In this document: one piece after another, positions 12,269 through 52,328 of the stretch | Numbering within the stretch: the first letter of the stretch is position 1 | How the letters are laid out: the number at the start of each line of letters is the position of its first letter | Origin: Candidatus Poribacteria bacterium | Lineage (GTDB): Bacteria > Poribacteria > WGA-4E > WGA-3G | Assembly: GCA_965215265.1 (NCBI GenBank) | Contig: OZ244048.1 | Location: 416,001-480,000 of the forward strand | DNA: 64,000 bases | Direction of reading: 5' to 3' | Notes under the pieces: model-generated | Databases searched by the model: none | What the model saw: the letters and a program-made list of their open reading frames with translations, nothing else | What the model was told of the DNA's origin: nothing | Made by a program: the position numbers and the translations under genes

Positions 12269-12594
12269 ATTTTGCCCCCAAAAATGTACAAATCCTCAGC
12301 ACATGCAGCCCTGGGGGCAAAAAATTGAGAATAAGCGATAGAGAGACGGTACAACAAAAACAGCCCGCAGCCGGTGCCATCAACCAATATGACACACGAG
12401 CGCACGGACAAAAAATCGGCAAATGCCAATAACGTTTTACTTAATAAAATACTTAACGAATGTGAATTGGGGGGGGGGTCGTGGCCTGTTAAACCTTGTG
12501 TACGAGAGGGATCTCGTGGAATTAACGACCGACAGCAATTGCAACCGGACGCTGGTACTGTTTTAAATCTAGGACTAATATGTTTATTCTTCAT
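12265..12594 (-). CDS. Putative leader ORF containing a C10 tract, translationally coupled to sspB
   Basis: Lies between the promoter and sspB; its TGA overlaps the sspB TTG (TTGA). The tract is at 12469-12478. No recognisable domain. Confidence 0.5.
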   Translation of the reverse strand: MKNKHISPRFKTVPASGCNCCRSLIPRDPSRTQGLTGHDPPPNSHSLSILLSKTLLAFADFLSVRSCVILVDGTGCGLFLLYRLSIAYSQFFAPRAACAEDLYIFGGKI

Positions 12595-12694
12595 CTACTT
12601 TACCGGTTAGATGTGAGGGAGTATAACTTAAACCAGAATGGAAAATAATTGAGATAATACACATTTTTCTGTTCTTCGGGTCATATTTACCTAT

Positions 12695-12723
12695 ATTATA
12701 CCTTAAACTGCAAATCTGTTCAA
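12695..12723 (-). promoter_or_regulatory. Sigma70-type promoter for the leader-ssp-pbe operon
   Basis: Minus strand: TTGAAC - 17 nt - TATAAT. Confidence 0.7.
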
Positions 12724-12785
12724 ACTATTTCCCGGATTTGTCACGTTTTGTTTTATTATATGAATTATCAAATTCTTGTGCGATT

Positions 12786-13652
12786 CTAGCCTTTAAACAC
12801 CTCTCTTAGGTGCCAATCTATAAATTCTTCGTTCGGGTAATCCATCTGGCTATGAGGAAAACTAATTTCTTTTCCGTGGAATCTCATTAGCCATTCTTCA
12901 AAACCGGCTGACCCGTCTGCATCCTCAGATACCACTATTGTCAACTCCTCGGACAATGCAAAGGCCCCCCGGTCGAACAACTTATGATGTAGCGAGCAGA
13001 GAGCCATGCCATTCTCTGCTATATCCGGTCCATCCGCCATGCGCCATTTGATATGAGCCGCCTCTAAAGCGACAGGACGAGCTCGTAACGTTACATTAAA
13101 TCCACAAATCGCACACTCGTGGTTATAAGCATCGAGGATACGGTGCCGGAATTTAGGATCACGGGGCTGCCAGAACGATCCGAAAGATAGTTCAATGCCG
13201 ACAGCTTGTAAAATATCTTCATGGTATGAGATTGGAAAATGAGAAGCTAGCAACCGCCCAGTTATTTCAAAAACTAAACCCAAATCGCTTTTAAGTTTTT
13301 CGGCAATCGCTGCCGGAAAGCTACCGACACCGTACTCCCTCAAATCGGTGACGTACGCATCTCCACTAGCAGTCTGCTGAATTCTATGTGCATCGGATAC
13401 TTGCCAGATGTCGTCGTTTTGCAACCGCCAAAATGGCTGCTCAGGGTGATACCTTTGGCACCACGGTCCAAACTCTTTTAGTAAGTCCTTGAGTTCCTTT
13501 TCAGCTTCTGCAAATGGGATGTACTCAGTTTCGCTGTTCAGCAATTTGCCTATCGCATAAAGTAGCAGCAACGGCTTATGAGGCGCTCTTTCGCCGCCGC
13601 TTTTCCATACATTCAAGTCCTGAAATTTCTGAATAATTGATTCTCTGTCCAT
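12786..13652 (-). CDS. Sulfur-binding-domain (SBD) HNH endonuclease, phosphorothioate-DNA-dependent restriction type
   Basis: SBD motifs RAPHKPLLLL and PFWRL; C-terminal CAIC...LEAAHIK...NGMALCSLHHKLFDRG. Confidence 0.85.
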   Translation of the reverse strand: MDRESIIQKFQDLNVWKSGGERAPHKPLLLLYAIGKLLNSETEYIPFAEAEKELKDLLKEFGPWCQRYHPEQPFWRLQNDDIWQVSDAHRIQQTASGDAYVTDLREYGVGSFPAAIAEKLKSDLGLVFEITGRLLASHFPISYHEDILQAVGIELSFGSFWQPRDPKFRHRILDAYNHECAICGFNVTLRARPVALEAAHIKWRMADGPDIAENGMALCSLHHKLFDRGAFALSEELTIVVSEDADGSAGFEEWLMRFHGKEISFPHSQMDYPNEEFIDWHLREVFKG

Positions 13653-13727
13653 TTTCTATCTTCTTAGCTATAGAAGAGTTCCATTTTCTCTCTGCTGCGA
13701 ATCAGGATGCGATATAAACAAAGAAAT

Positions 13728-14420
13728 TCAACTTGTAAAAGTGGAATTCTGCTCTGTTTTATCTTCAATTTCCAGGAAATCCTCGTGCCTTTCTTCCAAG
13801 AGATTCGCTAACGCTTCTTCCATGGAATCCTCGGATGCTTCAGCATGATTCATCACAAATTCCCATGCAATATAGTAGATATTATCTAAGTCAAAATCTG
13901 AGGGGTGGTAACGGTCGAAATGAGCGATATCACAAGTATAAAGAATTTCCCCTACGTAATCAACCGCTCCATCGGGGAGTTCTGCGAGCATCTGTGCGGT
14001 TGTTACATCGTCCACCTTTATCTCGTATTTTTTGCTAATGTACTGTTTAATGACACGCGCAATTATTTTGTGGTATTCGGCAATTGCATCCTTCTCACGC
14101 AGGGCATAAGCATCTTCAAGCTGGCTGAGTGCTTGATCTTCAAAGGGCTTGCCGTCACCCAATGTTAGCGGACTTCTGCGCCGCTGCGGATTTGGCTGTC
14201 CCTTGCTTACCGTTCGTGCTCTTCTTGGACTTTGCGGGCTTCTATGCACGTGCTGAAGCTTCTCACGGTGCGCTTGCCGGTTGCGGCGGACACGCGAGCG
14301 AAGAACCAGCGCACCTGCCGCGAGAATGATGAGACACGCTGGTAAAACAACCCACAAAAGAGTGCTGACGATATCCATGAGTTGATATGGACTAGCACGG
14401 AGTCCAGCCGCGTTCTCCAT
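13728..14420 (-). CDS. Hypothetical single-pass membrane protein
   Basis: ATG 14420 with an AGGA RBS, a TM segment, a basic linker and a helical domain 'YHKIIARVIKQYI...TTAQML'. The 5' extension in the ORF track overlaps the upstream gene. Confidence 0.6.
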   Translation of the reverse strand: MENAAGLRASPYQLMDIVSTLLWVVLPACLIILAAGALVLRSRVRRNRQAHREKLQHVHRSPQSPRRARTVSKGQPNPQRRRSPLTLGDGKPFEDQALSQLEDAYALREKDAIAEYHKIIARVIKQYISKKYEIKVDDVTTAQMLAELPDGAVDYVGEILYTCDIAHFDRYHPSDFDLDNIYYIAWEFVMNHAEASEDSMEEALANLLEERHEDFLEIEDKTEQNSTFTS

Positions 14421-14544
14421 CTGGTTTCCTACGGTTTGCGAGAGAAACCCAACAGTTCCAAAATAGCCGGTGGAAGATCGGCTTTTGCGTGTCTCGCTGT
14501 TTTGTATCGTGCTTGCCAGAGTTGTGCCACACGCAAAAACTCGC

Positions 14545-16056
14545 CTAATCTTCATGGCATAGCCCATATTCTTTTGCTTTCCTTTGAATGGTTCGGCGGC
14601 TGATTTGCAAAATTTTCGCCGCTTTCGCTTTGTTATTCTCTGCATATTCAAGTGTGGCACGAAGAGCCTCGCGGCTAATTTCGTCAAGTGACATGCCGAC
14701 CTCCACATTAATGCGCGGCACAATGCTGCTGCTCGAATCTAACGTCCGAAGCGTCGGTAAGAACGGCATCTCTGAGACACCTTGATCTCCCTCAAAAAGC
14801 GGAGGAACCTTCTGATTCAGCGCAATGCTGCTTTCAGGTTCATATTGGGAAGACTCATGTTCCGCTAAGGTCTTCTCAAGGATGCGCTCAGGTAGTTCAG
14901 CCTGTTGTATCGCTGACTGTGTAGACATAACCACAAGCCCCTCAATACAATTTTTCAATTCTCGCACATTTCCAGGCCAGTCGTACTTCATTAACGTTCT
15001 AATCGCCGGGGTTGTCATCTTCATCAAAGCTTTTCCGTTTTCCCGACAAAATTCTGCGAGAAAATCTTTGACGAGCAGCGGAATATCTTCTACCCGTTCT
15101 TTAAGTGTCGGGAGGTTAATCCGGATAACGTTGAGCCTGTCGTAAAGATCTGGGAGGAACGTGCCGTTTTGGCATGCCGACTCCAAATCATGGTTCGTTG
15201 CACAGACGACCCGCACGTCAACTTTAATCGTTTTACTCCCGCCCATCCGTTCAAATTCTCGTTCTTCGAGGACACGCAGCAAACGTGCCTGATTGGATAA
15301 ACTGAGTTTCGAGATTTCATCCAAGAAGAGCGTGCCACCGTGTGCAAGCTCAAACCTGCCTTTGCGTTGATAATAAGCCCCGCTAAACGAACCACGTTCA
15401 TGACCAAAAAGTTCGGATTCCGCAAGGTTCTCGTTGAGCGTCGCACAGTTAAAAGCGATGAGCGAACCACGCCGCAAACTGCGATGATGAACCGCACGAG
15501 CAACGAGCTCTTTACCTGTCCCACGCGCACCGTAGATAAGCACCGTCGCTTTTGTCGGCGCGACTTGCGTCACCATCTCACGGATCCTGATGATTTGCGG
15601 GGACTGACCGGTCAGACGCCGTAAGCCCTCATTTTCGTCTATTTGCGATTGCAACTGGCGGTTCTCAAACTTTAGACGTTGACTTTGGAGCGTTCTCTGC
15701 AGCAGCGCCCTCAGGTGAACAGGATTCACCGGCTTCGGCAGAAAATAGGTCCCTTCATGCACTGTCATCGCTTTGATGCCGATATCAGTCTCCAAAATAT
15801 TGGAAGCCGTGATGAAAATCACACCTATATCCGGATGGTGCTGCATCGCCGCTTCTAACAAACTTAACCCATCAATCCGTTCCGCTTTCAGTGTCGCAAT
15901 CAGGATATCCGTTTTCAGATGCTCAAGCTGATAAAATGCTTGATACATGTTGCTCGTCACAACTAAATTGAGCCCCTCTTCACCGAGCGTTTGGCAGACT
16001 AGCTCGCGTTGCCGTGGGTCGGCATCTACAATCAGCACGGTTTTCTGTGTATTCAT
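14545..16056 (-). CDS. Sigma54-dependent (NtrC/Fis-type) transcriptional regulator with atypical receiver domain
   Basis: Receiver domain; AAA+ GARGTGKE, ESELFGHERGSFSGA, GTLFLDEI, WPGNVRELKN; Fis-type HTH. Confidence 0.92.
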   Translation of the reverse strand: MNTQKTVLIVDADPRQRELVCQTLGEEGLNLVVTSNMYQAFYQLEHLKTDILIATLKAERIDGLSLLEAAMQHHPDIGVIFITASNILETDIGIKAMTVHEGTYFLPKPVNPVHLRALLQRTLQSQRLKFENRQLQSQIDENEGLRRLTGQSPQIIRIREMVTQVAPTKATVLIYGARGTGKELVARAVHHRSLRRGSLIAFNCATLNENLAESELFGHERGSFSGAYYQRKGRFELAHGGTLFLDEISKLSLSNQARLLRVLEEREFERMGGSKTIKVDVRVVCATNHDLESACQNGTFLPDLYDRLNVIRINLPTLKERVEDIPLLVKDFLAEFCRENGKALMKMTTPAIRTLMKYDWPGNVRELKNCIEGLVVMSTQSAIQQAELPERILEKTLAEHESSQYEPESSIALNQKVPPLFEGDQGVSEMPFLPTLRTLDSSSSIVPRINVEVGMSLDEISREALRATLEYAENNKAKAAKILQISRRTIQRKAKEYGLCHED

Positions 16057-16312
16057 TTTTTCTCACTACCTTCTTGATAAACAGCATAGCAAATTACGGG
16101 GCGTTGAGCATGCTGTAGAACGCTTCCCCCTTATTTCCAGAAAACGGACGGAAGAGATAGGGCATGCAGGGATGTCAGCATCTTGCCGGTAATTTGCGCT
16201 AAAGCACGGACCCATAATCTCAATCGCAACAAAAAACCGAGGTAATTCGGTAGCAGTCCTATAAATTCACTTTTGTCCGTTAAGAAATCTAACAGGCTGA
16301 ATGAACGAGTCA

Positions 16313-16755
16313 TCAAGCTAACTTTTTCCGGATGAGCCCACTCATTAAAAGGTTATCTGCCTTACCTCACACTTGAGGAGTTAAAGCAAACATCACCTTA
16401 CCCATATCTCTCATTGAGGTAGGACAGAGCTCGTCAATAACTTTTTTAGCGAGTACGGCAATTTCGGATTCCGAGAGCTGCCCCTGAAGAAATACTCCAA
16501 AACCTAAATTTGCTCGGATTTCCTGGCTATTAGTTGCGTTCAACCCCTGTTTTTTTTACTGTGCCAAGACCTCTTTGCACTTCTTTACTTGGTTAACTAT
16601 GATTTCCAGAATGCCGTTATCATCAAGTTTGACCACTTTTCAATCTCTTTATCCGGGATTGCACCGCGGATCGTCCGGATTGCGAAAAGTCGCAGTTTAT
16701 CACGTGCATTCATGACTCCTTTCATTTCTTCATTCAGTGTGTCATGAAGCGTCAT
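16313..16755 (-). pseudogene. yqeY: Degraded GatB/YqeY-domain protein gene
   Basis: Manual translation across frames: MTLHDTLNEEMKGVMNARDKLRLFAIRTIRGAIPDKEIEK / KLDDNGILEIIVNQVKKCKEVLAQ* / QLSESEIAVLAKKVIDELCPTSMRDMGKVMFALTPQV*GKADNLLMSGLIRKKLA*. Confidence 0.8.
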
Positions 16756-17308
16756 CAGGCATTACGCCAAAATTTTATGTTTCATAAATTATAACCGATA
16801 ACTCCGTTATGAGTCAATAGAAAATTTACGCGCACTTCCTCTATTTTTTCTAGCAGATTTACGAGAAACGGGTTTTCGTGGAAGTTGATTCTTTTTTGAC
16901 ACGTTTCCACAAATCTAGAATACTGTGAGAACCGGCCATCGTGCCAATGCTATCCGAGCCGAATTTACCGGAACCCCTCAACGAAAGAGCAGAATACGTC
17001 GACAGATGTGTTAGTCGATACTGTCCCCCATTTCGCAGCTCTCTTGCGCCGCGCGGACTCACAGCTTTTCTCATACACAGACTCCGCCATCGTCCCCAGA
17101 CGCAACTCACAAAAAAAGTGCCGCTAAATCAGACTCCCATACATTTTTCTTACAATTTTTTTAAAAATATGATATATTAATGTGAACATCATAAAAATCT
17201 GCCTGACAATGTTGCAAACCTGCTTATCAGAGGAGACAACCGCATGCACAATAAACTCACAAAGCCCAGCCTCGTCCCTCAACCGCATGGCCCCAGAGGA
17301 GCAAACGC

Positions 17309-20300
17309 ATGAACAAAGAACACATCAGAGAGGCTCTCGCTGCAATATGCACTGGCCCCTTTTTACAAACCGCGAAAAACCTGCTCGCCACGCTCGGCTA
17401 CCGCAGCGATTTGACAGAAGCATTCTCTGGAACAGCCGGCGACTTTATAGAGACTTTCCCCGCATTCAACCCGAACACCCAAACGGAACAAGCCCTCCGA
17501 AACCACGCAGCCTCGATACACTTCATCTTCCAACTCACAGACGCAGAAATAGATGGCGAAACGCAACAGCGGTTAGAACTCTTTGAAGGAAACGATGCGG
17601 AAAGTTTCTTTTTCTTCGCGGTTGAACTAAAAGAGAAAACCTACTCCCGCGGTGCGTACGCAGAATTGACGCGAGAAATCAATAAGCGTCTGATTGTTCC
17701 GACGGTGGTGTTATTTCGTGTGTCAACCCGGCTAACCCTCGGTTTTGTGGGACGCCGTCCACACGAGCACCACCCAGAACGTGATGTTCTCCAACAAGTG
17801 ACACTCATCAAGGATATTCGTCTTGAGGCACCGCACCGTGCGCATTTAGATATCCTCTCTGAACTTTCACGAACAGAATGCCTGAACTGGATGGACGCAA
17901 ATAACAGACAGAAAAACTTAGCCGGACTGCTATCCGCCTGGCTAGCGAAACTCAACACCGAAGCGCTCAATAAGCAGTTCTACCGAAGGTTGTTCAGCTG
18001 GTTTGAGTGGGCAGTGAGGGAAGCGAAGTTCCCGACAGCCGAGCTGAATCCGTTGGGTTCCGAAGCACACATCATCCGGCTCATCACGCGGCTGCTCTTT
18101 ATATGGTTCTTGAAAGAAAAAGGGCTTGTCCCCGAGTGGCTTTTTCAAGATTCCGGGCAGAAAGAGCAGGCGGGCACGCAAAACAACGAGCTGTCTGAAG
18201 AATCTGAACAGAATAGGCAGGTAAGCCTGCAAAACAACCAACAGTCTGAATACCCCCCCCCTTACAGACGTTAAGTCTTCTGCCGAACTCCACGACAGAA
18301 AGCAGCCTGCACGCACACCTCAAAAACTTTGAGCCCGACACATCCGACTACTACCAAGCCATCCTCCAAAACCTATTCTTTGCTACTCTCAACACACCTA
18401 TAAATCAACGCACATTTAGCACACACGATAACCGGAGCCACCGCGACTCAAGCAAATATCGCTATGCTGACCTGCTCCAACAACCCGACACCTTCCTTCA
18501 ACACCTAAAGCACGTCCCATTTGTCAACGGCGGACTGTTTGACTGCCTCGATACCTTTGAGGCAACCGGCGACGGCGGTGTCCGAATAGACTGTTTCTCT
18601 GATAACAAAACAGTTCGGCAAAAATTACACGTCCCCGCAAAACTCTTCTTTGACAAAACACACGGCCTCTTTCCTCTCTTCGCTCACTATAAGTTTACCG
18701 TCGAGGAAAACACACCCATTGAACAAGAAGTCGCGCTCGATCCAGAACTGCTCGGACAGATATTCGAAAACCTGCTCGGCACCTATAACCCCGAAACACA
18801 ATCCACCGCACGCAAAGCCACAGGCTCTTACTACACACCCCGCCAGATTGTCGACTATATGGTAGACGAGGCACTCATCGCATACCTCCTCCAAAACGTC
18901 AAACCCTACGACGGAAACACACAATCCCTTGAAGAACGCCTCCGCGAAGACCTCCTCGCTTACGAATCCCAAGGCAACATTGATGAAGACGCACATCACC
19001 TCATTCATCCAGAGGAAATCCAACCCCTCATTCAGGCAATCGACGCACTCAAAATCATAGATCCAGCCGTCGGCTCCGGGGCTTTCGCTATGGGCATCCT
19101 CAATAAACTCGTGCTCATCCTCCGAAAACTCGACCCGCAGAATCAAAACTGGAAGCAGCGACAACTTCAACAAGCTGAGAACATACCAGATACCCATAGC
19201 CGAGAAAGCGCGAAGCAGGCAATTGAGGCAGTTTTCTCCAAGGCGAATCACTACAACGACTACGGACGTAAACTCTACCTCATCCAAAACGGCCTCTACG
19301 GCATAGATATACAACCCATCGCCGTCACCATAGCAAAACTCCGCTTTTTCATCTCCCTCATCATAGAGCAGATACCCAACCAGAACCCTGACGACAACTA
19401 CGGCATCAGACCCCTCCCCAACTTGGAGACGAAGTTCGTTGCCGCAAACACCCTCATCGGCTTGAAGGGGGCAAAAGAAACGGATTTTCAGCGCTTGCTG
19501 GAAACAGACACCATCCAACAACTCCGCAACGACATTGAAGTCATCCGCGCCAAACACTTCTCCGGCAGCACCCGTCCGCAAAAACTTGAGGCGATGCGAA
19601 AAGAGGAAAAGTGCCGTGAAAAATTGGCACGAGCGCTAAGAACACAGTCGGAACAGTGGACGGTGCAGGAGCAAAGCCGGATATCCCAACAGATTGCGCA
19701 GCTGCCAAAAAAGGAGGCGCGCAACCAACTCCAAGAAAAACTCGAGAAAGCGTATGCAATTCGTCAGCAAAAGCTAACAGCCAGCGTAGAAGAGGCACAG
19801 AAAATCGCAGACTGGAATCCATACAACCAGAACGCCGTCGCCGATTTCTTTGAACCCGCATGGATGTTCGGCATCCACCACGGCTTTCACATCGTCATCG
19901 GCAATCCACCCTACATCCGACACCACAAAATTCACCATCTCAAACCTACCTTGAAAACACAATTTGGTGATTTCTTTACGGGCATGGCAGACATCAGCGT
20001 CTACTTCTACAAACGCGGAGCCGAACTACTACGAGAAGGTGGTTTACTCTCCTACATCTGCACAAACAAGTTTATGCGCAGCGGCTACGGAAAAAAACTA
20101 CGCCAATTCCTAACCGCTGAGATGGCACTAAAAACAATTTTGGATTTCGGCAGCCTTTCCGTCTTTGACGCAGCAGTAAATGCATCCATTCTCCTCGTTC
20201 AAAAGTCGCCACCTACTCCAAACCACACCCTCCATGCGACAACCCTAAGGCATGTTTCAAAGGAATTTAACGTCCGGAAAGCATTTCAAACGCAGGCATT

Positions 20301-21216
20301 CCCGATGCAGCTCGCCTATTTGTCTTCAGAAGAATGGACGTTAGCACGCACAGAAACACTCGCCCTACTACAGAAATTGCAACACACGGGAACATCATTC
20401 AGCGAATCAATACAAGGTCAACTTTATATTGGTATCTTCACCGGATACAATGAAGCATTTATCATAGATGAATCTCTCTGTCAGCAGCTAATAGCAGAGG
20501 ATGCCAAAAGCGCACAACTCATAAAACCTTTACTGCGAGGGCGGAATCTCAAAAAATGGAAAGCGGTATCAGCAAACGAGCACTTGATAGCAATAGCCAG
20601 CAGTGCCAATAAACAGTGGCCCTGGTCAAACGCAGCAAGCGAATCTGAAGCCGAACAGATTTTTGAAAAAACCTATCCAGCAATCCATCGCCATCTAATA
20701 CGCTATAAAGAGCGGCTTTTACCCCGTGATAACCAGGGAAAATTCTATTGGGAGTTGCGTTCGTGCGCCTATTACGACGCGTTCGAAAAGCCGAAGATCA
20801 TCTATCCGGATATTAGCTCATCTATGCGTGCGTGTTATGATACCGCAAACGCTTTTTCCTTACAGACTACCTACATCTTACCTACTGAGGATCTCTCTTT
20901 GCTTGCAATTTTGAACAGCCAACTTTTTGATTGGTATGCCAAATATAAGTTTCAGAGCCTTAACGATCCGTGGATAGGTGGTGGCTTGCGTTTCATTGCT
21001 CAATACATGCGACATGTCCCGATAGCCAATAGAACAGAAGCACAGAAAGCCGCACTCTCACGCCTCGTCGCGCAGATATTGGCAGAACCCAACGGCGATG
21101 CCGTGAACGCACTTGAGAAAGAGATAGATACCTTAGTCTATCAGTTATATGAGTTAACGCCGCAAGAAATTCAACTCATAGAACAGACGTATCGCGACGC
21201 AGGGATGACAGTATGA
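17309..21216 (+). CDS. Type IIG (Eco57I-like) fused restriction-modification enzyme, frameshifted at a C9 tract (18253-18261)
   Basis: The first ORF (17309-18274) carries RLITRLLFIWFLKEKGLVP. The -1 frame is open from 18262 through DYYQAILQNLFF, PFVNGGLF and GSYYTP into the 18859-21216 ORF (DPAVGSGAF, GNPPY, TRD). One extra C gives a single ~1302-aa protein. Confidence 0.88.
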
Positions 21217-21244
21217 AGCACCACGCTCTATATTATAGCAACCC

Positions 21245-21860: not shown

Positions 21861-22117
21861 TCCGGTACAGACACACCATTTTTTCCCATTGACAACCACC
21901 GTTCACCCGTAACTCACAATTTAAAAAAAATATCACATTTGTAGTGCCCAAATAGGAGTCGTTCTCCAGCCAAGGCAACCAGATATCGACGTTATCTCAA
22001 TAGCAAAAAAAAAATTCAAATCTGCTTTGCAATTCTATTAAAATTGTGGTAAAATTCACGTGCAATGTCCAGAACACTCTTAATTAAAGCCGTACACTGA
22101 ATTCAAGGAGAAAACTT

Positions 22118-23697: not shown

Positions 23698-23858
23698 TAT
23701 AACCCACGATGAGCATAACACCATCTCTTACTAGTCATGAAAAGTATAAGAACCCTCTGCTGTTTATACCAGAGCGAGAGCATAACAACCTTTCACACAA
23801 GACACCCCTCCGGAATCAATCAAAATAATCTTCATCGCAAAACATGCGGAGTTGCTAT

Positions 23859-24686
23859 ATGAACAGTCCAAAAATCATAATCCCACGCACCGAAAGCGAC
23901 AAGCTGCTCGCAATGCCAACACGCGAAGCTGAACAACTCTTCCAAAGTTATGAAAAGCAACAGCAGCTTGATATTATAAACGCAACGCGAAACCCTAGAA
24001 AGCGAGAACAACTCTACTATCTCGTACCTGATTGCACCGAACTCATACAAGAAAGCCCAACCGTCGAAGTCCTCCAAATCCTCGACACGATGCTCGGCAC
24101 AGGACTCGCATCCGCACTGCTACCTTGCCTCTCAAATGAACAATTTGAAGAACTCGTCGATATTGCAGTCTGGCAAGACGGAAAATTAGATCAAGAATCT
24201 CTTAACCTCTGGCTCTTTGAACTCTCTGAATGCGATCGCGACGACCTCGCACGATTCCTCGCAGAACTCGACATCCGACTCCTCGCCGCACTCCTCCACC
24301 AACGCATACTATTGCAAAGCGAATACGCCGCAATGTTCATTGAAGCTGAATACATCGACCCAGGCTCCCCCGCAATTCGCTATCTCGATGAACAAGCAAA
24401 AACCATTAGTCAGGCTATCTGGGAAGCTGACGGCGAGATCTTCCTTATGCTACTACGCGAACTCTTCGCAATTGATGAAGAAGGAGAAGTCGACGACATA
24501 CTCGCTCATACACTCGGTATCGCACAAGCTGACAGACAAGAACGCGTCGAACTACGCGATAAACAGACCGGCATTGATGTCACAGAAGCTGAATTGACAC
24601 AACGCGTAGATCTCAACTCACTCACACTTCAAGACGGAGAAGAAGAAGAGCAGCAGGAGGAAAATGATGATGATGAAACAAAATAA
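23859..24686 (+). CDS. Acidic helical hypothetical protein (DUF6178-like)
   Basis: Long ORF with typical codon usage and a GGAG RBS. 'LVDIAVWQDGKLD...WL' resembles the DUF6178 N-terminus (from memory). Confidence 0.6.
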   Translation: MNSPKIIIPRTESDKLLAMPTREAEQLFQSYEKQQQLDIINATRNPRKREQLYYLVPDCTELIQESPTVEVLQILDTMLGTGLASALLPCLSNEQFEELVDIAVWQDGKLDQESLNLWLFELSECDRDDLARFLAELDIRLLAALLHQRILLQSEYAAMFIEAEYIDPGSPAIRYLDEQAKTISQAIWEADGEIFLMLLRELFAIDEEGEVDDILAHTLGIAQADRQERVELRDKQTGIDVTEAELTQRVDLNSLTLQDGEEEEQQEENDDDETK

Positions 24687-25626
24687 CGCACCAATTGTAC
24701 CAACAACCACCATCGACACCCAGCTGTTCCTCGCACAAGTCCTCGCACACGGAGAGGAAAACGGCACAATCTCACATCTCCAGGCCGAGCAGCTCTATCA
24801 GAACGTCACCGTCATCGCACATAAACTTATTACCATGAAAACCCAAAACCTCGCAGACTTGGCAGGACTACGCACCCAGACGCAAAACGCTTTTACACTC
24901 ATTAGCCTGGGACTTGAATACGGCAGCAACCGAAACCTCCACAAAGCAGCACGACAACTCCTCAAAAACAGAACCGTCCAATTCTTCCAGATTGGCAACA
25001 CTATCACCGACAAAGTCGTAGCACGCGCACGCAAACTCATACAAAGCAAAGGACTTCTTACACCTATCGCCTTCCCCGGCCACAACACCGAAGAATTCAT
25101 TATTTTCAACAAAGCCGAGCACGATTTTTTGAACGCAACGCTCCAATATAGTCTCAACATTCAAACACCCCAAATCACTATTAGAGAAACAATACCATGG
25201 CGCACTATTACACAATTGAACGACATAAAACTCATGGAAAATCAACTCGCATGCCTTGAAAACCGACGCCACTACCTCGCAGCTTTGCCCCTCGAACAAA
25301 TTTTAAAACCCGACACACAAATTTTAAAATCCGACACAATGCTCAACTTCACCTTAAAACCTGTAGAATCAATCACGCTCGGCCTGATCGTCAACCTCAC
25401 GCTCCATCGGCAAATCGATTTACAACTCGACTACGATGCCTTAAACGATTTCACCGAACTCGCTTATACCGACGGGCAAATCTCAAACGCCATTCGACAA
25501 CGATTACTCGACTGGATTAAACAATACCTTGACCAGCACCATCAACCTCACGCAGTACAACAATACGCCGCCGCATACTGGGATGAATGTCTTCATGACT
25601 ATCAACAAATCAGAAAATATCGATGA
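24664..25626 (+). CDS. Hypothetical protein coupled to the upstream gene (DUF6178 C-terminal-like)
   Basis: Overlaps the upstream stop; 'ISLGLE...FFQIG' motif. Confidence 0.6.
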   Translation: MMMMKQNNAPIVPTTTIDTQLFLAQVLAHGEENGTISHLQAEQLYQNVTVIAHKLITMKTQNLADLAGLRTQTQNAFTLISLGLEYGSNRNLHKAARQLLKNRTVQFFQIGNTITDKVVARARKLIQSKGLLTPIAFPGHNTEEFIIFNKAEHDFLNATLQYSLNIQTPQITIRETIPWRTITQLNDIKLMENQLACLENRRHYLAALPLEQILKPDTQILKSDTMLNFTLKPVESITLGLIVNLTLHRQIDLQLDYDALNDFTELAYTDGQISNAIRQRLLDWIKQYLDQHHQPHAVQQYAAAYWDECLHDYQQIRKYR

Positions 25627-38470: not shown

Positions 38471-38479
38471 TGTGATCTG

Positions 38480-43460: not shown

Positions 43461-43568
43461 AACAACATAACACCCTTAGCCCTTAGAAGAAATAAAAACC
43501 GAATGCAAACAAGAATGGCACAATTTACGATAAGAATACCGATTAACCTTATAAGGAATAAAAACCGA

Positions 43569-44531: not shown

Positions 44532-44536
44532 TAAAA

Positions 44537-46201
44537 GTGACTCATGCCAAATTCCGGGACAAAAATCCCAAACTGCAAAAGCCAAAACTCGCACTCGGAC
44601 TAGATTCAAGCACACAGAGCCTCTCTGCCATCCTCATTGATATTGATAAAGCAGAGAAGCACTTTGAGCACGCCCTAGACTATCGCACCGACGAACGACT
44701 AAACCGGTTCGGGCTCGGAGAAGACTATATACTACCCTCACCAGTTGAAGGACAGGCAGAACAACCACCGCTCATCTACCTCGCATCCATTGATGCAATG
44801 TTCGCTGACATGCAAGCAGCGGATGTTCCGATCGAGGACATCGTTGTTATCAACACATCCGGGCAACAGCACGGACACGTCTATCTTAACCGCAGCGCAG
44901 CGCAGCGCCTCCAGATACTAAACCAGCCTGAAAGCAGTCAAGCCAATCTGAAAGAGCTGCTCACCGAAATTTTCGCATATCCCACCGCACCCATCTGGAT
45001 GACTTCCAACACCCTCCAGCAAACTGAGCAGCTCAGAAAGGCCGTTGGCGGAAAACAACGCATGGTGCAACTCTCCGGCTCTGACGCTCCGCTCCGCTTT
45101 ACAGGAACCATCATGCAACGCGTCGCCGAGCAATTCCCCGAACTCTACCACCAAACCGCCAACATTCAACTTATTAGCAGTTTTATACCCGCAATACTCA
45201 CAGCAAATAGCCTCGTACCTATTGATTACGGAAACGCTTGCGGCATGTCACTCATGAATTACCGCACAAAAATGTGGGAACCAGAATTATTAGAGGCAAC
45301 CGCACACAGATTGCCCGGCGGCACACAGGAATTCCGCAGCAAACTACCAACTCTCGCACGTCCTGACGCTGCTGTCGGAACAATTGCAAATTACTATATT
45401 CAAAAATACGGGTTCTCCCCAGCCTGCACCATCATAGCCGGCTCAGGAGACAACCCCCAGGCGAAAGTCCCTGTTGCCGGAGATCTGCTCAGCCTCGGAA
45501 CCAGCTTCGTCAATATGGTAGCAACCGACGGCAATACGCTTGATCCTGAAGGTTTTGCTAACGCCATGTACGACGGCATCGGACGCCCTTTTATGTTCGG
45601 CTGCAGAACCAACGGCGCAATGGTATGGGACGCTGTCAGAAATCGATACGGACTCGCTAAAGAGGAATACGCACCCGCAGAAGCAGCACTCCAAGACGCA
45701 CCACCCGGACAATTCATGACGTTCTGGCAACCAAAAAACGAATCCTTCCCCCTTTCCGGGGCATTTGAACTCAGACGAACATCGCAGACACGCAACCCTA
45801 CACTAGGAGAAGATTATGCAGGCGTTATCGAGACAAGCCTCGCCTCTGTTTACCTCTATTCTCAGGGGTTTACTAAACAAAACCAAGCACCGCTCTTTGT
45901 TACTGGAGGTGCCACTGAAAGCCCCGAAATTATGCGACGCGTCGCCGGAATTTGGAATAGACCAGCCATCCCTATAGAAAAGGGCGGGGCCGCACTCGGC
46001 GCCGCTGTCGCAGGCGCAAACGCGTATTGCAAACAAAACAGCCTACCCTTTGACATAGAGACTTTTAGTGCAGCTGTCTTGAAACGCAGTGAACCCATAC
46101 AGCCAAACTCTACCGATGTCCAAGCATACCATACGCAAGGAAAATATCTACACCGTTTTTATCAACTTTACCAGAAAATTATCGCCGAGAATCCTATATA
46201 A
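44537..46201 (+). CDS. FGGY carbohydrate kinase, xylulokinase-like
   Basis: LGLDSSTQSL, SGQQHG, RFTG, GDNP, SLGTS, VTGGA, AALGAA. Confidence 0.88.
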   Translation: MTHAKFRDKNPKLQKPKLALGLDSSTQSLSAILIDIDKAEKHFEHALDYRTDERLNRFGLGEDYILPSPVEGQAEQPPLIYLASIDAMFADMQAADVPIEDIVVINTSGQQHGHVYLNRSAAQRLQILNQPESSQANLKELLTEIFAYPTAPIWMTSNTLQQTEQLRKAVGGKQRMVQLSGSDAPLRFTGTIMQRVAEQFPELYHQTANIQLISSFIPAILTANSLVPIDYGNACGMSLMNYRTKMWEPELLEATAHRLPGGTQEFRSKLPTLARPDAAVGTIANYYIQKYGFSPACTIIAGSGDNPQAKVPVAGDLLSLGTSFVNMVATDGNTLDPEGFANAMYDGIGRPFMFGCRTNGAMVWDAVRNRYGLAKEEYAPAEAALQDAPPGQFMTFWQPKNESFPLSGAFELRRTSQTRNPTLGEDYAGVIETSLASVYLYSQGFTKQNQAPLFVTGGATESPEIMRRVAGIWNRPAIPIEKGGAALGAAVAGANAYCKQNSLPFDIETFSAAVLKRSEPIQPNSTDVQAYHTQGKYLHRFYQLYQKIIAENPI

Positions 46202-46249
46202 GACGCACCACACCAGAAACTCTCGGCTCGTCCTACAGAAATACAACCC

Positions 46250-46720
46250 ATGAAAAACAAATTGACGCACTTTGACCAAAAAGGAAACGCACGCATGGTG
46301 AATGTCGGGGACAAACCCGAAACATTGCGCATCGCCATCGCACACGGACACGTTACTGCAAAGCCCGAAACCTTGCAATTAATTACAGAACAACGCATCA
46401 AGAAGGGCGATGTCTTAGAAGTCGCACGCCTCGCCGGCATCATGGCAGCGAAACGCACCAGCGAACTCATACCTTTGTGTCACCCGCTCGCACTCACCTC
46501 CATCCGCGTCACATTAACCCTTGATGACAAAAAAATAAAAATTGAAGCTGAAGTCCAAACGGTCGGACGCACCGGCGTAGAAATGGAAGCACTCACAGCC
46601 GTCTCAATCGCCGCACTTACCATCTACGATATGTGCAAAGCAGTCGACAGGGAGATGCAAATCTCTGAAGTCAAATTAGTCAAAAAGACTGGAGGAAAAA
46701 GTGGTGAATATTTTCGATAG
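46250..46720 (+). CDS. moaC: Cyclic pyranopterin monophosphate synthase
   Basis: [40 protein letters not shown]. Confidence 0.97.
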
Positions 46721-49676
46721 AAGCATCAAAGCCAAACCCGGTTTAAACCTTGCTGACAACTACGACAACACAAACAGAACCTCCGGCCGGTATAAACCTT
46801 CACATCTCACTCTAATCTATGCCGTTCTAATCTGCTCGCTTCTCTTAATACCCACAACCGGCTTTCCAGCAGATTACGTGATGCTTATCGGCGGTGTCGG
46901 CGGCGAAAAATCCTTCTATGATGATTTCTGGAGCGCAACTTCCCGATTACATAAACTCCTCACAGAAGAATATAGCTACTCACACCAACAGATAACATTT
47001 CTCTTTGAAGATGAAGGCGACGCATCCGGCATAGTTGATGCACAAGCCAAGCGCGAAACGATTTTAGCAGCCTTCAATCAACTCGCAGAGAAAATTCAAA
47101 CCACAGACCGATTCATCCTCTTCATGATCGGACATGCAGCGCGCTCCGCGCAAGGTGTCAAATTTAATCTACCCGGCCGCGATATTAGTGAAGCCGAATA
47201 CGCACACAGCATTAACCGAATACCTACCAAAAACAAGGTCTTAATCTTCGGATTCCCTTATAGTGCAAAGTTCGTCCCAAACGTCACCGCCCCAGGCACC
47301 ATCATTATCACCTCAAGCTCACCCAATGAAGGCTACTCCTTACAAGCAGGATTCGGCGACGTTTTTGTTGATGCCTTCTCAACCACCGACGCAGATACAA
47401 ATATTGACGGAGTTGTCTCTCTCTTAGAGGCGTTTTTATGGCTACAGCAGCGCACCAAGGAATGGTACGAAAATGACGGCTCCGTCCAATCTGAACACCC
47501 ATACTTAGAAGACAACGGCGACGGCAGTCCATCACGAAAAGATATTGAAGAAACCTCTCCCGAATCGGACGGAAAACTCGCCGCAAATACATTTTTCGGA
47601 CAGCGACGCACTCCTCTGCCCCAGCCAACGCAAACACCAGAAACAGAACCCAACTCCCTCGCTGAACACATACCCGAATTTTCGAACACCGACAATAAAG
47701 AGATACCACCAAACAACACTTCATCAATCCCTTATGATTTCATCAGCGAACAGGACGAACTGGCAATCCAAAACGCCATTCAAAATGCACCCAATCAAAA
47801 ACAACTACCCAACGCCGGCGCAGTTATATTATGGGAAGGCATCGACATTGACATCGATGAGCAGAGCCGATATATCTATTCCACACGCAGAATTGTCAAA
47901 ATATTCAACGAAGACGGATACGGCTTAGGTGAAGTCAGCATCCCTTACATGCGGGGCAGAGACGATGTCACCATCCATCACGCCAAAACTTTTAAACCTA
48001 CAGGGAAAACCGTCGAACTCAACCCTAACGAAATCATACGAGATATACCCCCACCAAGTGCCGTAGAAGCAGGACTCTACGTCGACGCACGACTCATGCA
48101 CTTCACAATGCCCGAACTTACCAACGGATGCATCATAGACTACGCCTATTCTACAAACAACTTAGGACACATCATGAACGGAGAATTCTGGCGACAAGTC
48201 TTCTTCCAAACATCCGAACCCGTTCAATACTATCGATTTACTGCGCACATCCCTAAGAAAAAGCAGCTCTATTATCAAATCCTCGGCCCAAACATTGAAC
48301 CAACAATCACAGAGAACAACTACACCCGCACATATACCTTCGAGACGCGAGATGTTCCACCTCTAACCCAGGAATACCTCATGCCACCACCACAAGATCT
48401 CGCATATAACATCAGCATCTCATCACTCGATTCCTGGGATAAACTCGTAACATGGTACGCAACGCTCATCCGCGAACAAGATACAATGACCACGGCTATC
48501 CAAGCTAAAACCGACGAACTACTCAGAGGAACACGCAATCGCGCAGAGAAAATTAAGCGACTTTATGAATACGTCGCAACACAAATCCGGTACCTCGGAC
48601 TAGAACTCGGAATCTGGGCCATTAAACCCTACTCCGCTGATACCGTACTAAAGAATGGTAGAGGCGACTGTAAGGATAAAACAACACTCCTTTCCACTAT
48701 GCTCAAGCACGCCGGCATCCCCTCATATCCCGTGCTCATCTCTGCTGGAGACGCACGCGAAATCGTCACAGAAATCCCTTCGCTCGCATATTTCAATCAT
48801 ATGATCCTCGCCGTCGAAGCCGACAAAGGCAAAGAACTCTTATGGCTTGACCCTACCGCATCCACATGTGCTTTTGGCGACTTGCCCGCCGGAGATCAGG
48901 ACAGATGGACCCTCATTATAAATCCTGACTTCCTCGCAAATAACACAGAAACCCAACAAAAACAGAACCAACACAACGAAAAATCGCCACTCGCTAAACA
49001 ACTCTATCTCTTCCAAAAGAGCCCCACCCTTGACGCTGAGGCCAACGTCAAACGCATGAACACGCACCTACAAGTTAAAAAAGACATGAGCATCTCTGTC
49101 CAACAAGAACTAACCGTCACCGGAAATTTCAACACAAAACTTCGCGCCCAACTCGCACACCTACACACTAAAGAAGAGAAAACCCAATTCCTTCACAAAG
49201 AATTCGAACTAGATGAACGCGCCAAAGTCAACGATTTCAAAATCTCAGGACTTGATACCCTAAAACCCGAACTAACAGTACGCCTCGATTGGACATGCGA
49301 CGAGTACCTCTACGCCATCGGCAGCCAATTCATCCTCGAACTCCCGCTCATCAAACACCCTTACGCAGAACTGTTGAGTGAAGAACACCGATACCATCCA
49401 GCTGTCATTGGCATGGCCCTCTCCTTTGAAGATAAAATCACCGTGCTCGCAGAAGCACCTTTCGTCATAGACACCCTCCCTCAAGTCCAAAGCCTCAAAA
49501 CTGATGTCGCCGAAATCAAATTGGAATATACACGCTCTAAACGCAAAGCTGAGATGCACCAGAATGTTCAATTCCACGTACCACGCGTCAATCCGAATAA
49601 AATTATGCAACTTAAAGACATCGTCAAAATCGCATCAAGACGCGGACCCAAGCGGTTCAGCCTACGACAAAATTAA
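46701..49676 (+). CDS. Multidomain protein: caspase/C13-like N-domain + DUF3857 + transglutaminase-like domain
   Basis: N-domain 'FILFMIGH' and '[15 protein letters not shown]'; TG triad GDCKD / FNHMI / WLDPT. Confidence 0.8.
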
Positions 49677-49786
49677 CTGAACCGAAAGTATCAAAAAGCA
49701 TCAACCTTCACCGCTCATAGCCGCAGACGCACTTCCGTTAAATATCCGAAACGTCCAGAGTTTCATTCACAATTCACAATTCACAA

Positions 49787-49815
49787 TTGACAAAAAAGAA
49801 GAAGTACGCTATTAT
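49787..49815 (+). promoter_or_regulatory. Sigma70 promoter
   Basis: TTGACA - 17 nt - TATTAT, preceded by three TTCACAA repeats. Confidence 0.6.
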
Positions 49816-49903
49816 AGCTACACCGAAACGTTATAAAAAGCAGATAACCCCAAAAAAATACGGTCTTGGGGGACCCTACGGAAAATAAGGAGAATTTCGC
49901 AGA

Positions 49904-50314
49904 ATGTTTAAACCGACAGAAATCGCAAAAGCACACGCACTGTCTAAGTTTGGGATGAATTTGGAGGATATCGCACGGAAACTTTCCATCTCCATTGAGG
50001 AAGCGGAGACATTACTAAACACAACCGTCGACCCGAAGTTGATTGAGGAAGCAAGGAGAAATTTGATGGACAAAGAATTCGACGAAATTATGATCTACAG
50101 AGCCTTCGGCGTAACGCGTCCACCCGAGAAGCGGTTGCCCGGAGTGACATTATTGAGAGTGAGCCCGATACGCATAGGTGGGGAGGACTTTTTGTTGGGC
50201 ACGGACCCGGACCCTCAGGGGAACTTTTTTATCAACTCGGAACCGAGCCCTCAAGAGAAAGAGATACCCAACAAGGTAAAAGAAGCCATCGAAGGCCCTG
50301 ATGAGCCTGAGTAG
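49904..50314 (+). CDS. Hypothetical protein with possible N-terminal HTH
   Basis: AGGAG RBS; 'FGMNLEDIARKLSISIEEAETLL'. Confidence 0.55.
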   Translation: MFKPTEIAKAHALSKFGMNLEDIARKLSISIEEAETLLNTTVDPKLIEEARRNLMDKEFDEIMIYRAFGVTRPPEKRLPGVTLLRVSPIRIGGEDFLLGTDPDPQGNFFINSEPSPQEKEIPNKVKEAIEGPDEPE

Positions 50315-50535
50315 GAACAACATTACCACCCACAATGCCGCTGCAGCTAACAAACCCGGTTATCACACACCCGGAAAGCACACGCCAGCGGCATAACCAA
50401 CTCATAATGGAGCACACTGATGAACCCGGTTAGCGCGTGACGCGCACGCTTGAAAGAATGTCAGAAAAAAAGACATTGCTAAGATGCACAACGCGCACCG
50501 GGCATCAACCGCAAGCCAGCAGCACCTAAGCACTT

Positions 50536-52328
50536 ATGGAAAACAACTTGAACACCCATTCCGTTGAAAACTATGAATTTGAGCCCATCCAAGGCTACCC
50601 AAGACTCAGCTGGAAAGGAAAACGCCCGTTCCGCGCTACCCAATACTATCCCGCCCAACTCAAGGAGACACACGGCGAGAAAGTCAACGACTGGCGAAAT
50701 AAAATCTATTGGGGCGATAACCTGCAAGTCATGAGCCACCTGCTCAAGACATACCGCGGTAAGATGACCCTCATCTACATAGATCCGCCGTTTGACTCGA
50801 AAGCCGACTATAAGAAAAAAATAGAGCTGAAGGGAAAAAAGATAGAGAACGACCGCACCGCTTTTGAGGAGAAACAGTACACGGACATCTGGACGAATGA
50901 TGAATACCTCCAATTCATGTATGAACGGTTGATTCTACTGCGCGAATTGCTATCGGATAATGGGTCCATCTACCTTCACTGCGATCCAGCAAGGAGCCAT
51001 TATCTAAAGTTGATTATGGATGAGGTGTTTGGTAAAAATAAATTTCGGAATGAGATTATATGGTTTTATCATGATTCTCCAGGGCGCTCAACTAGCTATT
51101 TTCCGCAAAAACATGATGTTATCTTTTGGTATAGTAAAAGCCCAACAAAGTGGATTTTTAATTCTCATGAGGTACGTGTTCCTATTTTAGAAGCATCTAA
51201 AGAAAGGTATAAAAGTACACGAGTCATTGGTGGAAAAAGTTATGTTGGAGGCGAATCTGCTAGTGAGGGTAAAATTCCTGAAGATGTTTGGAGCATTCCA
51301 GTAATTAAAAAAAATTCCAAAGAAGGAAAAGAAGGGTTAGAGTATCCGACGCGAAAACCCGAGGCACTTCTTGAACGCATCATAAAAGCCTCATCCAATC
51401 CCGGTGATCTCGTCTTCGACTGCTTCATGGGCAGCGGCACCACACAAGCGGTTGCGATGAAACTCGGCCGCCGGTTCATCGGCGTTGACATCAACCTCGG
51501 CGCCGTCGAGACCACCTCAAAACGCCTTATAAATCTCGCAGCAAACATTGAGCAGAACACACGCCAACAGAAAATTGACTTTGAAGCGGAAAAAATCGAA
51601 AATACCCCCCCCCTTCTTCATATGTGTTAAGTTCCTATACAGGATTTGAGGTGTATAACGTCAACCACTACGACGTATTCCGCAACCCTATTGAGGCGAA
51701 AGCGCTCCTCATCGAGGCACTGGAAATACAGCCGCTCCCTTCCAGTGCAATATACGACGGCGAAAAAGACGGACACCTCGTCAAAATCATGCCTATCAAT
51801 CGCATTGCTACTCGCGCTGACATCAACGAACTCATCGCAGGATTAGATTACAAAACTTTCGAGAAACGCCAAGAACAACACCCCACCCGTGCCGTCGAAA
51901 AGTTGTTGCTCGTCTGTATGGGACATGAACCTGACCTCGCCGCCGCGTTGCAAAGTGAAGTGCCTTACAAACTTGACATAGAAGTGATGGATATCCTGCG
52001 TGACAAATCCGGGTTAGCGTTCAAACGCGAATCCGAAGCGAATATTGTTCGTAGCAACGGCCAAGTCAGCATAGAGCAGTTCTACCCAATGAACCTGCTC
52101 GAGAAGTTAAGTCTGCTGAAAGAGCACGTTGAAGACTGGCGCGAATTAGTCGAATCGGTGAAAGTTGACTTTAACTACGACGGTGCGGTGCTGAATCCGT
52201 CGGTGGTAGATGTGCCGGAAAAAGAGGGGTGGGTCAAAGGAACTTACCGCATCCCTAAAGATGCAGGCATAATCCGCGTAAAAATTACCGATCTGTTATC
52301 AGAATCTCTCGAAGCAACAGTGGAATAA
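50536..52328 (+). CDS. mod: Type III-like R-M methyltransferase (Mod), frameshifted at a C9 tract (51605-51613)
   Basis: IYWGDNL, YIDPPF, DCFMGSGTT in 50536-51630; continues in the -1 frame (YTGFEVYNVNHYD...RVKITDLL) to 52328. One extra C gives ~597 aa. Confidence 0.85.

Follow-up and report, generated by a model that had tools for sequence, protein, structure and literature searches.

Why should three defence loci within 64 kb of one bacterial genome each carry a long run of C residues followed, a few bases further on, by the same seven letters, GTTAAGT? The stretch concerned (the window) comprises the 64,000 bp between positions 416,001 and 480,000 of contig OZ244048.1 of a Candidatus Poribacteria bacterium (assembly GCA_965215265.1). 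The runs lie in a Type IIG restriction-methylase gene (site a), in a Type III mod gene (site b) and, on the minus strand, in the leader of an ssp/pbe operon (site c). In window coordinates, the sites are laid out as follows.

18253 to 18261, plus strand: site (a) tract, C9, with AATA before it and TTACAGAC then GTTAAGT after it
18262 to 18276, plus strand: site (a) spacer TTACAGAC and GTTAAGT (heptamer 18270 to 18276)
51605 to 51613, plus strand: site (b) tract, C9, with AATA before it, in the Type III mod gene 3' of the methylase domain
51614 to 51632, plus strand: site (b) spacer TTCTTCATATGT and GTTAAGT (heptamer 51626 to 51632)
12469 to 12478, minus strand: site (c) tract, C10 (G10 on the plus strand), with GA before it, the variable switch in the leader open reading frame
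12458 to 12468, minus strand: site (c) spacer AATTCACATTC, a weak left half-site AATTCAC plus a 4-nt centre
12451 to 12457, minus strand: site (c) GTTAAGT heptamer, with a second TTAAGT copy 7 nt downstream (12434 to 12439)

The preliminary description of this DNA gave these coordinates and sequences exactly, and its statement that the window has no other C/G run of nine or more extends to runs of eight or more. Sites (a) and (b) have AATACCCCCCCCCTT in common. The pattern C8-N4-20-GTTAAGT matches only at the three sites and in none of 100 dinucleotide-preserving shuffles of the window. GTTAAGT alone is not enriched (six copies against 7.08 expected), and three of the six adjoin the tracts. 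The two restriction-modification (R-M) loci on the plus strand are organized as follows.

17309 to 21216, plus strand: Type IIG restriction-methylase gene, which the tract divides into parts of 321 aa and 984 aa
50536 to 55029, plus strand: Type III R-M locus, with mod (50536 to 51630 and 51624 to 52328) and res (52348 to 55029)

With C9, the open reading frames (ORFs) 17309-18274 at site (a) and 50536-51630 at site (b) end at the TAA inside the heptamer. The frame that reads the heptamer as TTA-AGT is open as far as 21216 at site (a) and carries on as ORF 51624-52328 at site (b), where a GTG at 51624 opens the downstream frame and overlaps the TAA stop. C10 would join the two frames at both sites, and site (c), which has C10, is an open ORF of 109 aa. 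ORF analysis thus agrees with the earlier proposal that C9 stops in the motif and C10 reads through it. The tract of site (a) falls between the N-terminal and methylase parts of the Type IIG enzyme. The three loci had been described as unrelated; this is correct in that the genes at (a) and (b) belong to different Pfam families (Eco57I and N6_N4_Mtase, respectively), but both encode DNA methylases.

The same arrangement recurs throughout the genome, a single 4.83 Mb contig of 48% G+C (G000). It contains 100 C/G runs of at least eight, and GTTAAGT lies no more than 30 nt to the 3' side of the C strand at 48 of them; it is never found on the 5' side, and its reverse complement is found at a single run. 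The association depends steeply on run length, with the heptamer at 1 of 3152 C5, 0 of 500 C6, 1 of 66 C7 and 13 of 44 C8 runs, and at 35 of the 56 runs of nine or more. Genome-wide there are 409 copies against a Markov expectation of 391, such that the word is unusual only in its placement beside long runs. The scan against controls that had been suggested earlier therefore returns strong enrichment (48 of 100 long runs against none of the C6 runs); the presence of the heptamer beside poly-C is far beyond chance and marks a recurring cassette. Runs were also clustered by the 25 nt upstream, giving 51 flank families, 21 of which contain the exact heptamer (counted from the cluster listing) and nine more a one-letter variant (ATTAAGT, GTTAAGG, CGTTAACC, CGTTAAAA or GTTAATT). 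There are thus about 21 independent gene contexts here, with further examples in related genomes, and the idea of a recurring switch, as opposed to random simple sequence repeats (SSRs), is upheld. The explanation that we consider best, to which as a whole we give about an even chance, places the three window sites among about 50 contingency switches spread over the genome. Runaway expansion of runs near the motif was set aside: runs of C4 or more lie upstream of 6 of 357 non-cassette GTTAAGT sites (1.7%), compared with 2.1-7.3% for seven control words, a difference too weak to build on.

Cassette-bearing ORFs were assigned by Pfam and PADLOC scans. Thirteen of the 21 exact-motif families are R-M or methylase genes (N6_N4_Mtase, TypeIII_RM_meth or Eco57I), a concentration in defence genes. 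They include seven Type IIG paralogues with the same cassette, one of which is the window gene at 17309-21216, as well as Type III mod genes, further N6_N4 methylases and one Eco57I/MmeI-type enzyme. One family consists of leucine-rich repeat lipoproteins with 14 members, whose signal peptide (MKRRMHPPP...) contains the run; three are small ORFs in operon leaders (Ssp-Pbe, an ABC ATPase and an ABC-2 permease), and four have no gene assignment. By our own count, at least 35 methylase loci in this genome bear a run. Runs that lack the motif fall into two groups, ordinary C8 runs that keep the frame of a housekeeping gene (rpoC and trpA, for example), and runs in additional methylase families. 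Among the latter we note a set of N6_N4 methylase paralogues (C1:224762 and others, including locus L081; 10 loci by flank clustering) with a poly-G run of 8-9 between the DPPF and YTDIW motifs and no GTTAAGT, and a second family (17857, three copies) encoding an NPPY MmeI/Eco57I-type enzyme.

The cassette is also present in relatives. C8-N4-16-GTTAAGT is found in 14 of 41 relatives, with no matches to a reversed-pattern control, and A-C8-N4-16-GTTAAGT in 38 of 173 genomes of the same class (34 of 111 in family f1, 1 of 11 in f2 and 2 of 29 in f3), with class-wide totals, summed from the table, of about 152 matches against three for the reversed pattern. Absence of the cassette is not only an assembly effect, because complete single-contig genomes occur among non-carriers as well as carriers. 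Across 185,579 species the strict pattern identifies seven loci: two in Candidatus Poribacteria metagenome-assembled genomes (MAGs), three in one goat-gut MAG, and one each in a Desulfamplus MAG and a Cocleimonas MAG. For about 8 kb, one Poribacteria contig shares synteny with G000 (73-74% nucleotide identity), and the three goat-MAG sites are in paralogous lipoprotein signal peptides. These three loci (L003-L005, in a MAG titled Acetobacter sp. from goat abomasum) have TTTA-C9-TT(T)AAAA(T)TTTT-GTTAAGT in AT-rich DNA, almost identical to the G000 cassette at 2240514; the low G+C content suggests that the name Acetobacter sp. is doubtful. Viral contigs yielded one match and metagenome contigs three, most of them unconvincing. 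Metagenome locus L030, in DNA of 37% G+C from another phylum, has the cassette at the N-terminus of a Type III mod gene.

Comparison of these loci gives a composite cassette, (C)GAT(T)TA - C(n) - 0-8 nt - ACTTNAY - N4 - GTTAAGT, with a run of 8-11. The base before the run is A at 76 of the 100 runs, with T-rich positions ahead of that A, and the base after it is T at 77; the upstream block (C)GAT(T)TA is seen in relatives. The spacer is A/T-rich and 6-15 nt long, even when 0-40 nt are allowed in the search. Spacers in relatives conform to ACTT[ACT]A[CT]-N4-GTTAAGT, starting 0-8 nt past the run, and include the perfect palindrome ACTTAAC-ATAC-GTTAAGT together with ACTTCAC-ATAC-GTTAAGT. In G000 the 7-mer that a 4-nt gap separates from the heptamer, on its upstream side, agrees with ACTTAAC at 3.25 of 7 positions (12 distinct spacers of at least 11 nt), compared with 1.86 +/- 1.20 at the same position of the 357 non-cassette GTTAAGT sites, and gaps of 3 or 5 nt give no such excess in this genome (means 2.17 and 1.64). 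The unit is thus an imperfect 18-bp palindrome, ACTTNAY-N4-GTTAAGT, with one strong half, the heptamer. Lineages vary in the final two letters of the heptamer, and one genus prefers CCGTTAACC.

A second copy of (G)TTAAGT lies 7 nt on at site (c) and 5 nt on in the 1292291 family of Type III mod genes, and places TAAGTN 17 nt after a TTCACA/TTGATA hexamer. A few cassettes fit TTGATA/TTCACA-N17-TAAGTN through this second copy, and the cassette of the G131 orthologue of site (c) fits TTTACA-N17-TATAAA. A general sigma-70 promoter was rejected, with a mean best score of 6.0 against a background of 5.57 and scores of 8 or more in 16% against 6%. We similarly rejected an enzyme cutting at a fixed distance, with a reach of the Eco57I type: positions 14-16 from the motif fall within nearly every run in G000, but one relative has a 19-nt spacer and the word is not avoided genome-wide.

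The coding strand was set by the longest open frames on either side of the cassette; C-strand genes make up about 14 families (34 loci) and G-strand genes about seven (15 loci, one of which is probably misassigned). In the G-strand genes the order in the mRNA is ACTTAAC, spacer, G(n) and then TAA or TAG, with the heptamer upstream of the run. Across cassettes the heptamer is read as Leu-Ser, Val-Lys or, in reverse, Leu-Asn, and within the lipoprotein family the same conserved letters encode Val-Lys at nine loci and Leu-Ser at three. Two homologous Type III mod genes, those of L030 and the G000 1292291 family, are 57% identical over 159 aa, yet L030 has the cassette on the C strand at codons 6-15 and the 1292291 family has it on the G strand about 45 codons in. 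No stable fold was predicted for any of six cassettes as single-stranded DNA (minimum free energy 0 to -1.8 kcal/mol, z -1.3 to +0.7), and the predicted RNA fold of the site (c) leader leaves the spacer unpaired, with only the first two letters of the motif paired. A hairpin or cruciform was rejected on the grounds that the folds are no better than those of shuffles and that the left arm does not co-vary in the genus with GTTAACC. A programmed -1 frameshift site was likewise rejected: there is no structure 5-9 nt past the run in the six cassettes, about seven families use the other strand, and run lengths of 8-11 occur. As general explanations, therefore, neither a motif in the protein nor a stimulator of ribosomal frameshifting nor a hairpin in RNA or DNA is tenable. 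Because its polarity follows the C strand and is independent of the gene, the heptamer is a nucleotide-level signal, acting at the level of DNA and not of codons, frameshifting or RNA structure. The proposal that it is a frame-switch signal acting on the ribosome or RNA polymerase does not survive the use of both strands and several frames and the lack of predicted structure.

The run lengths themselves vary. Paralogues with identical flanks have runs of 8, 9 or 11. For comparisons between samples we used Logan contigs from four sequencing runs of four studies (X3, X5, X6 and X7) over positions 12000-19000 of the window; these are assembled contigs in which homopolymer miscalls are possible at single sites, and X3 may derive from the study that produced the window. 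Site (c) is one letter shorter (C9) in the contigs of three of the four, X3, X5 and X6, the change being the sole indel listed over 7 kb for X3 and X5, and an X7 contig terminates at the tract. The full depth of X6 (39 of 39) and part of that of X7 (33.6 of 161.6) show site (a) one letter shorter (C8), a comparison confounded by the seven paralogues, and C10 is seen there in none of the four. Because tract lengths differ both between paralogues and between samples, the runs are supported as DNA-level slippage switches, in keeping with the homopolymer phase variation that had been put forward for these genes. A slip-prone mononucleotide run of about eight or more lies in an ORF or leader at all three window sites, and methylase genes with a frame-setting repeat, which characterize phasevarions, are present.

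ORF analysis shows frame switching by run-length change, with 8 of 49 loci open and 41 off by one or two letters. Most methylase families are open at a run length of 10, but none of these loci in this genome is actually at 10; 17 methylase loci hold a 9-run, one letter short of the open frame, and others have 8 or 11. Four of the 12 lipoprotein loci listed are open, at 8 or 9. The state that is one letter too short has a recurrent form: on the C strand the frame halts at the TAA of the motif when the open frame is TTA-AGT, and on the G strand it halts at a TAA or TAG directly after the run, as at 8 of the 15 G-strand loci, all of them G9. Either stop would thus act immediately in cells whose run is one letter too short. 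With at least 35 run-bearing methylase loci, mostly off in the consensus, R-M specificities could be shuffled at the level of the population on a scale exceeding that of the classical pathogens, a point of relevance to defence against phages in dense sponge microbiomes.

The preponderance of runs one letter short is the best argument for programmed recoding, in which the 9-mer would itself be functional and GTTAAGT would stimulate a -1 frameshift or slippage by RNA polymerase. The one-short state is shared by L030, which belongs to another phylum; C10 is absent at site (a) from the contigs of the four sequencing runs; and a 0-frame stop comes soon after the run. We nonetheless regard recoding as improbable, given that the six cassettes fold no better than shuffles, that in G-strand genes a stimulator would have to be on the other side of the run from the motif, that lengths of 8, 9, 10 and 11 occur among paralogues and samples, and that lipoproteins are open at 8 or 9 and site (c) at 10. 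Single-base homopolymer errors are common in long-read assemblies, and the C9/C10 difference at site (c) between the window and X3 could be technical. The association with the heptamer is independent of exact run length in the window shuffles, the genome scan and the class-wide counts, however, and chance or a homopolymer-calling assembly artefact, already refuted for the motif association, has a negligible probability as an account of the cassette.

Site (c) differs from the R-M genes in that its run lies in a leader ahead of an operon, organized as follows on the minus strand.

12695 to 12723, minus strand: sigma-70-like promoter, TTGAAC-N17-TATAAT, 10 of 12 matches
12265 to 12594, minus strand: leader ORF of 109 aa, open only with C10, its stop overlapping the sspB TTG start (ATTTGA)
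12415 to 12430, minus strand: terminator-like hairpin 1 plus T run, 20 nt past the heptamer
12361 to 12373, minus strand: terminator-like hairpin 2 (CGGCTGCGGGCTG plus T run), a block kept in other cassette-bearing leaders
2445 to 12268, minus strand: operon behind site (c), assigned by PADLOC and Pfam
11276 to 12268, minus strand: SspB, in the operon
7800 to 11279, minus strand: SspC, in the operon
6971 to 7906, minus strand: SspD, in the operon
4806 to 6941, minus strand: PbeA, in the operon
2445 to 4553, minus strand: PbeC, in the operon

The run and motif are about 210 nt into the transcript from the predicted promoter. Three terminator-like sites, two of them hairpins 1 and 2, are present in the region scanned, against 0.3 expected from shuffles. 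Seventeen of 20 sspB orthologue loci have no run of seven or more, and many show a plain promoter just before the ATG (for example TTGCAT-N17-TATAAT, a few bases upstream); the three with a run and motif are those of G000, G006 and G131, the last with the variant GATAAGT. In all four cassette leaders compared (G000, G006, G131 and L001) an ORF of about 55-65 codons extends from the motif through the terminator-like block, and G000 and L001 use different frames to read a conserved block, GCTGCGGGCTGTTTTTGTT. The 109-aa leader ORF has no Pfam or PADLOC match, and tblastn finds no similarity among the leader peptides of orthologous loci. Leader-type cassettes (in G000, those at window 12361-12440, L019, L022 and L032; also L001, L002, L038 and L052) share further downstream blocks, CTCGGCAT about 20-27 nt past the heptamer and a GGCACC...GCGGGC-T-run terminator-like element about 75-130 nt past it. 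The whole leader looks like a reusable regulatory module.

Site (c) probably works by ribosome-dependent anti-termination and translational coupling. With C10 the leader ORF would be translated across both terminator-like hairpins and end on the sspB start (ON), and with C9 translation would halt at the TAA of the motif, upstream of the hairpins, so that transcription would terminate and sspB would be uncoupled (OFF). This resembles leader-peptide attenuation and translational coupling, in that the leader ORF covers terminator-like hairpins and its last codon meets the start of the gene that opens the operon, but control here would come from a heritable frame switch and not from tRNA supply. 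Such a mechanism is specific to leader-type cassettes. A terminator after every cassette was rejected, with terminator-like sites following 5 of 49 cassettes against a background of 10.3%.

An early stop ahead of terminators is also what would be expected if the heptamer served a translation-level design, in which it is kept as an immediate and efficient TAA stop in one OFF frame, often with an overlapping NTG start in the ON frame that allows re-initiation and so limits aberrant products or yields split enzymes. C9 halts at the TAA of the motif at all three window sites, the TAA or TAG following eight of the G-strand runs is in accord with such a design, and a T precedes the motif in 14 of 20 families, creating ATG, GTG or TTG in 13 of 21. 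But any stop codon would suffice, and seven letters are more than such a role requires; of the two OFF frames the stop catches only one; and the Type IIG family has ACG, which is not a start codon, before the motif. Moreover, the heptamer cannot be the OFF stop in G-strand genes, because it sits upstream of the run there. The built-in OFF stop of the preliminary description thus describes the three window sites and fails as a general rule, and we think it rather unlikely that a translation-level design explains the word.

What, then, does the heptamer do? It acts on DNA, keeps a set orientation towards the run whatever the gene, resembles a palindrome with a 4-bp centre, and has exactly the same sequence across genera. 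The palindrome is most likely the site of a dimeric, sequence-specific DNA-binding protein. A protein bound beside the run could stall replication or repair and so raise or gate slippage; alternatively, it could co-regulate all of the switch loci. A trans-acting factor, one of the mechanisms offered in the preliminary description, may therefore be at work. The explanation as a whole, in which contingency switches, a DNA cassette and a protein site are combined, is evenly balanced in our judgement between right and wrong, and rather more than half of the weight we give it rests on the protein site, which taken alone is a tentative proposal. A stronger form, in which a dedicated protein at ACTTNAY-N4-GTTAAGT (a roadblock or nickase) actively drives or gates changes in run length, is possible but unlikely. 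If it were true, some fifty defence and surface genes would be diversified by targeted, programmed hypermutation and not by passive slippage, and the module could be placed in any gene in either orientation.

Several observations weigh against the explanation by contingency switches with a protein site. The left half-site is weak in this genome, and the geometry is loose, with 6-15 nt between run and heptamer and up to 19 nt in a relative. The heptamer is not needed for a run to exist, as one large methylase family (10 loci by flank clustering) has variable runs without it, and another genus has many TA-C9 runs that either lack the heptamer or are followed by ...TTCGTTAAT. The length evidence between samples comes from contigs with possible miscalls at single sites, the attenuation model for site (c) rests on hairpins found by pattern scanning, and terminator-like sites are not a general feature downstream of cassettes.

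The origins of individual cassettes bear on whether the word has a function at all. It could instead be one end of a portable mini-cassette with no function of its own, copied into permissive sites such as linkers, N-termini and leaders, in either orientation, by insertion or by short-patch conversion between runs. Both flanks, YTA before the run and GTTAAGT after it, are present whichever strand codes, and the association with long runs is all-or-none. Like spacers recur in unrelated genes and phyla, as with TTTA-C9-T(T)AAAA(A)TTT-GTTAAGT in G000 and the goat-gut MAG and a similar sequence in L030. In the 1292291 family LNNYQGGG is an exact eight-codon surplus relative to the 57%-identical homologue in L030, and cassette leaders stand where other loci have plain promoters, as at sspB (3 of 20 orthologues) and in the comparison of L001 with the G000 locus. 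The downstream blocks shared by leader-type cassettes, read in different frames, are also in accord with copying. However, contiguous copying predicts that letters next to the run should be the better conserved, and the reverse is seen, with the distal heptamer invariant and the run-adjacent spacer variable; moreover, no terminal repeats, target duplications or candidate enzyme were found. A further difficulty is the L016/L025 mod family, in which ACTTAAC encodes the ancestral E-L-N and the run is on the GG of a motif found in the solved Mbo45V methylase (G000 ...HAALELNKYEVGGG aligns with Mbo45V ...HAVMELNKEDGG). This cassette arose in place, and such convergence on the same word argues for selection on the DNA word itself. 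In-place origin and patterns that resemble insertion both occur, and a functionless mini-cassette is an explanation that we doubt and to which we nevertheless give some weight.

In their behaviour these loci are like the R-M genes and lipoproteins of mucosal pathogens that undergo homopolymer phase variation. Phase-variable R-M methylases with poly-G/C runs ('phasevarions') are known in Neisseria, Haemophilus, Helicobacter, Campylobacter and Moraxella, and as here a C/G run in mod or Type IIG genes sets the frame, its length varies and there are many loci per genome. The Poribacteria system differs in that about half of the runs are accompanied by one heptamer of fixed polarity on either gene strand, and in its larger load, with at least 35 run-bearing methylase loci in one genome. 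We know of no shared flanking word described for the pathogen systems, and a literature search, in sources available in part, returned nothing on a conserved word beside SSR runs or on phase variation in Poribacteria. In the Bordetella fim system a poly-C run reportedly lies between conserved flanks of paralogous promoters, its length spacing activator and core promoter; the likeness is a C run between conserved elements common to several loci, but here the flanks are common to non-homologous genes, are mostly inside ORFs, and have sigma-70 scores at background. Bacteroides invertible promoters share inverted repeats used by one global invertase and provide a parallel in that many unrelated loci have one short cis motif and could answer to a single trans-acting protein; site-specific inversion occurs there and run-length change here.

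Integron attC sites have the core words RYYYAAC ... GTTRRRY, and the arms recognized by XerD-type recombinases are degenerate. ACTTAAC and GTTAAGT fit these consensus words and form an inverted repeat as a pair, a likeness that we treat as a lead only. An attC site was rejected, as the unit is 18 bp, whereas such sites are imperfect palindromes of 57-141 bp with R''/L''/L'/R' boxes, and has no inner L boxes. A XerD arm or a dif site (two 11-bp arms around a 6-bp centre, present once near the terminus and conserved among relatives) seems unlikely, as the sole dif-like site (G000 4292054) is inside a TTGACA-N17-TATACT promoter; no conserved counterpart of it was found in five relatives with the patterns used, and one conserved palindromic match in the dif search may be RNase P RNA, which it resembles. 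Neither GC skew nor ORF-strand curves located the origin or terminus in this genome.

The usual view of homopolymer phase variation is one of a bare repeat that slips passively. New here are the shared flanking DNA word and half-palindrome beside the runs, the independence of the word from strand and frame, and the number of run-bearing methylase genes in an uncultivated, symbiont-like genome. About half of the variable runs have one fixed word beside them, and the word is present again in several genera and, now and then, in other phyla. Should it prove to control switching, SSR phase variation would have its first cis element, which would provide both a handle for finding the factor involved and a ready-made portable ON/OFF module.

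Among various other features of this genome, we note a ComEC-like competence gene (C1:3229028, L071) in which a C8 followed by ATTAAGT divides the product into 147 and 671 aa; phase variation may thus extend to DNA uptake. At L032 (C1:1410000-1426000) there is a diversity-generating retroelement (DGR) with the only RVT_1 gene of the genome (L032 9881-10945), a template repeat at about 11033-11147 and, at the 3' ends of two paralogous target genes, variable repeats (7740-7854 and 9063-9177). A variant-family poly-C run (C9-TTACTTCACATAAATTAACC) lies about 390 nt upstream of the first target gene. A link between cassettes and the DGR or its reverse transcriptase was rejected, the single reverse transcriptase of the genome being part of an ordinary DGR. 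A link to sigma-54 activators was set aside, as two of nine such genes are no more than 3 kb from cassettes, which is not significant (rough p of about 0.07); the two genes are at window 14545-16056 and C1:1295422-1295928. Elsewhere in the window, at 23844-25626, a DUF6178 protein is split into two overlapping ORFs at GAA/GAT trinucleotide repeats (about 24640-24680).

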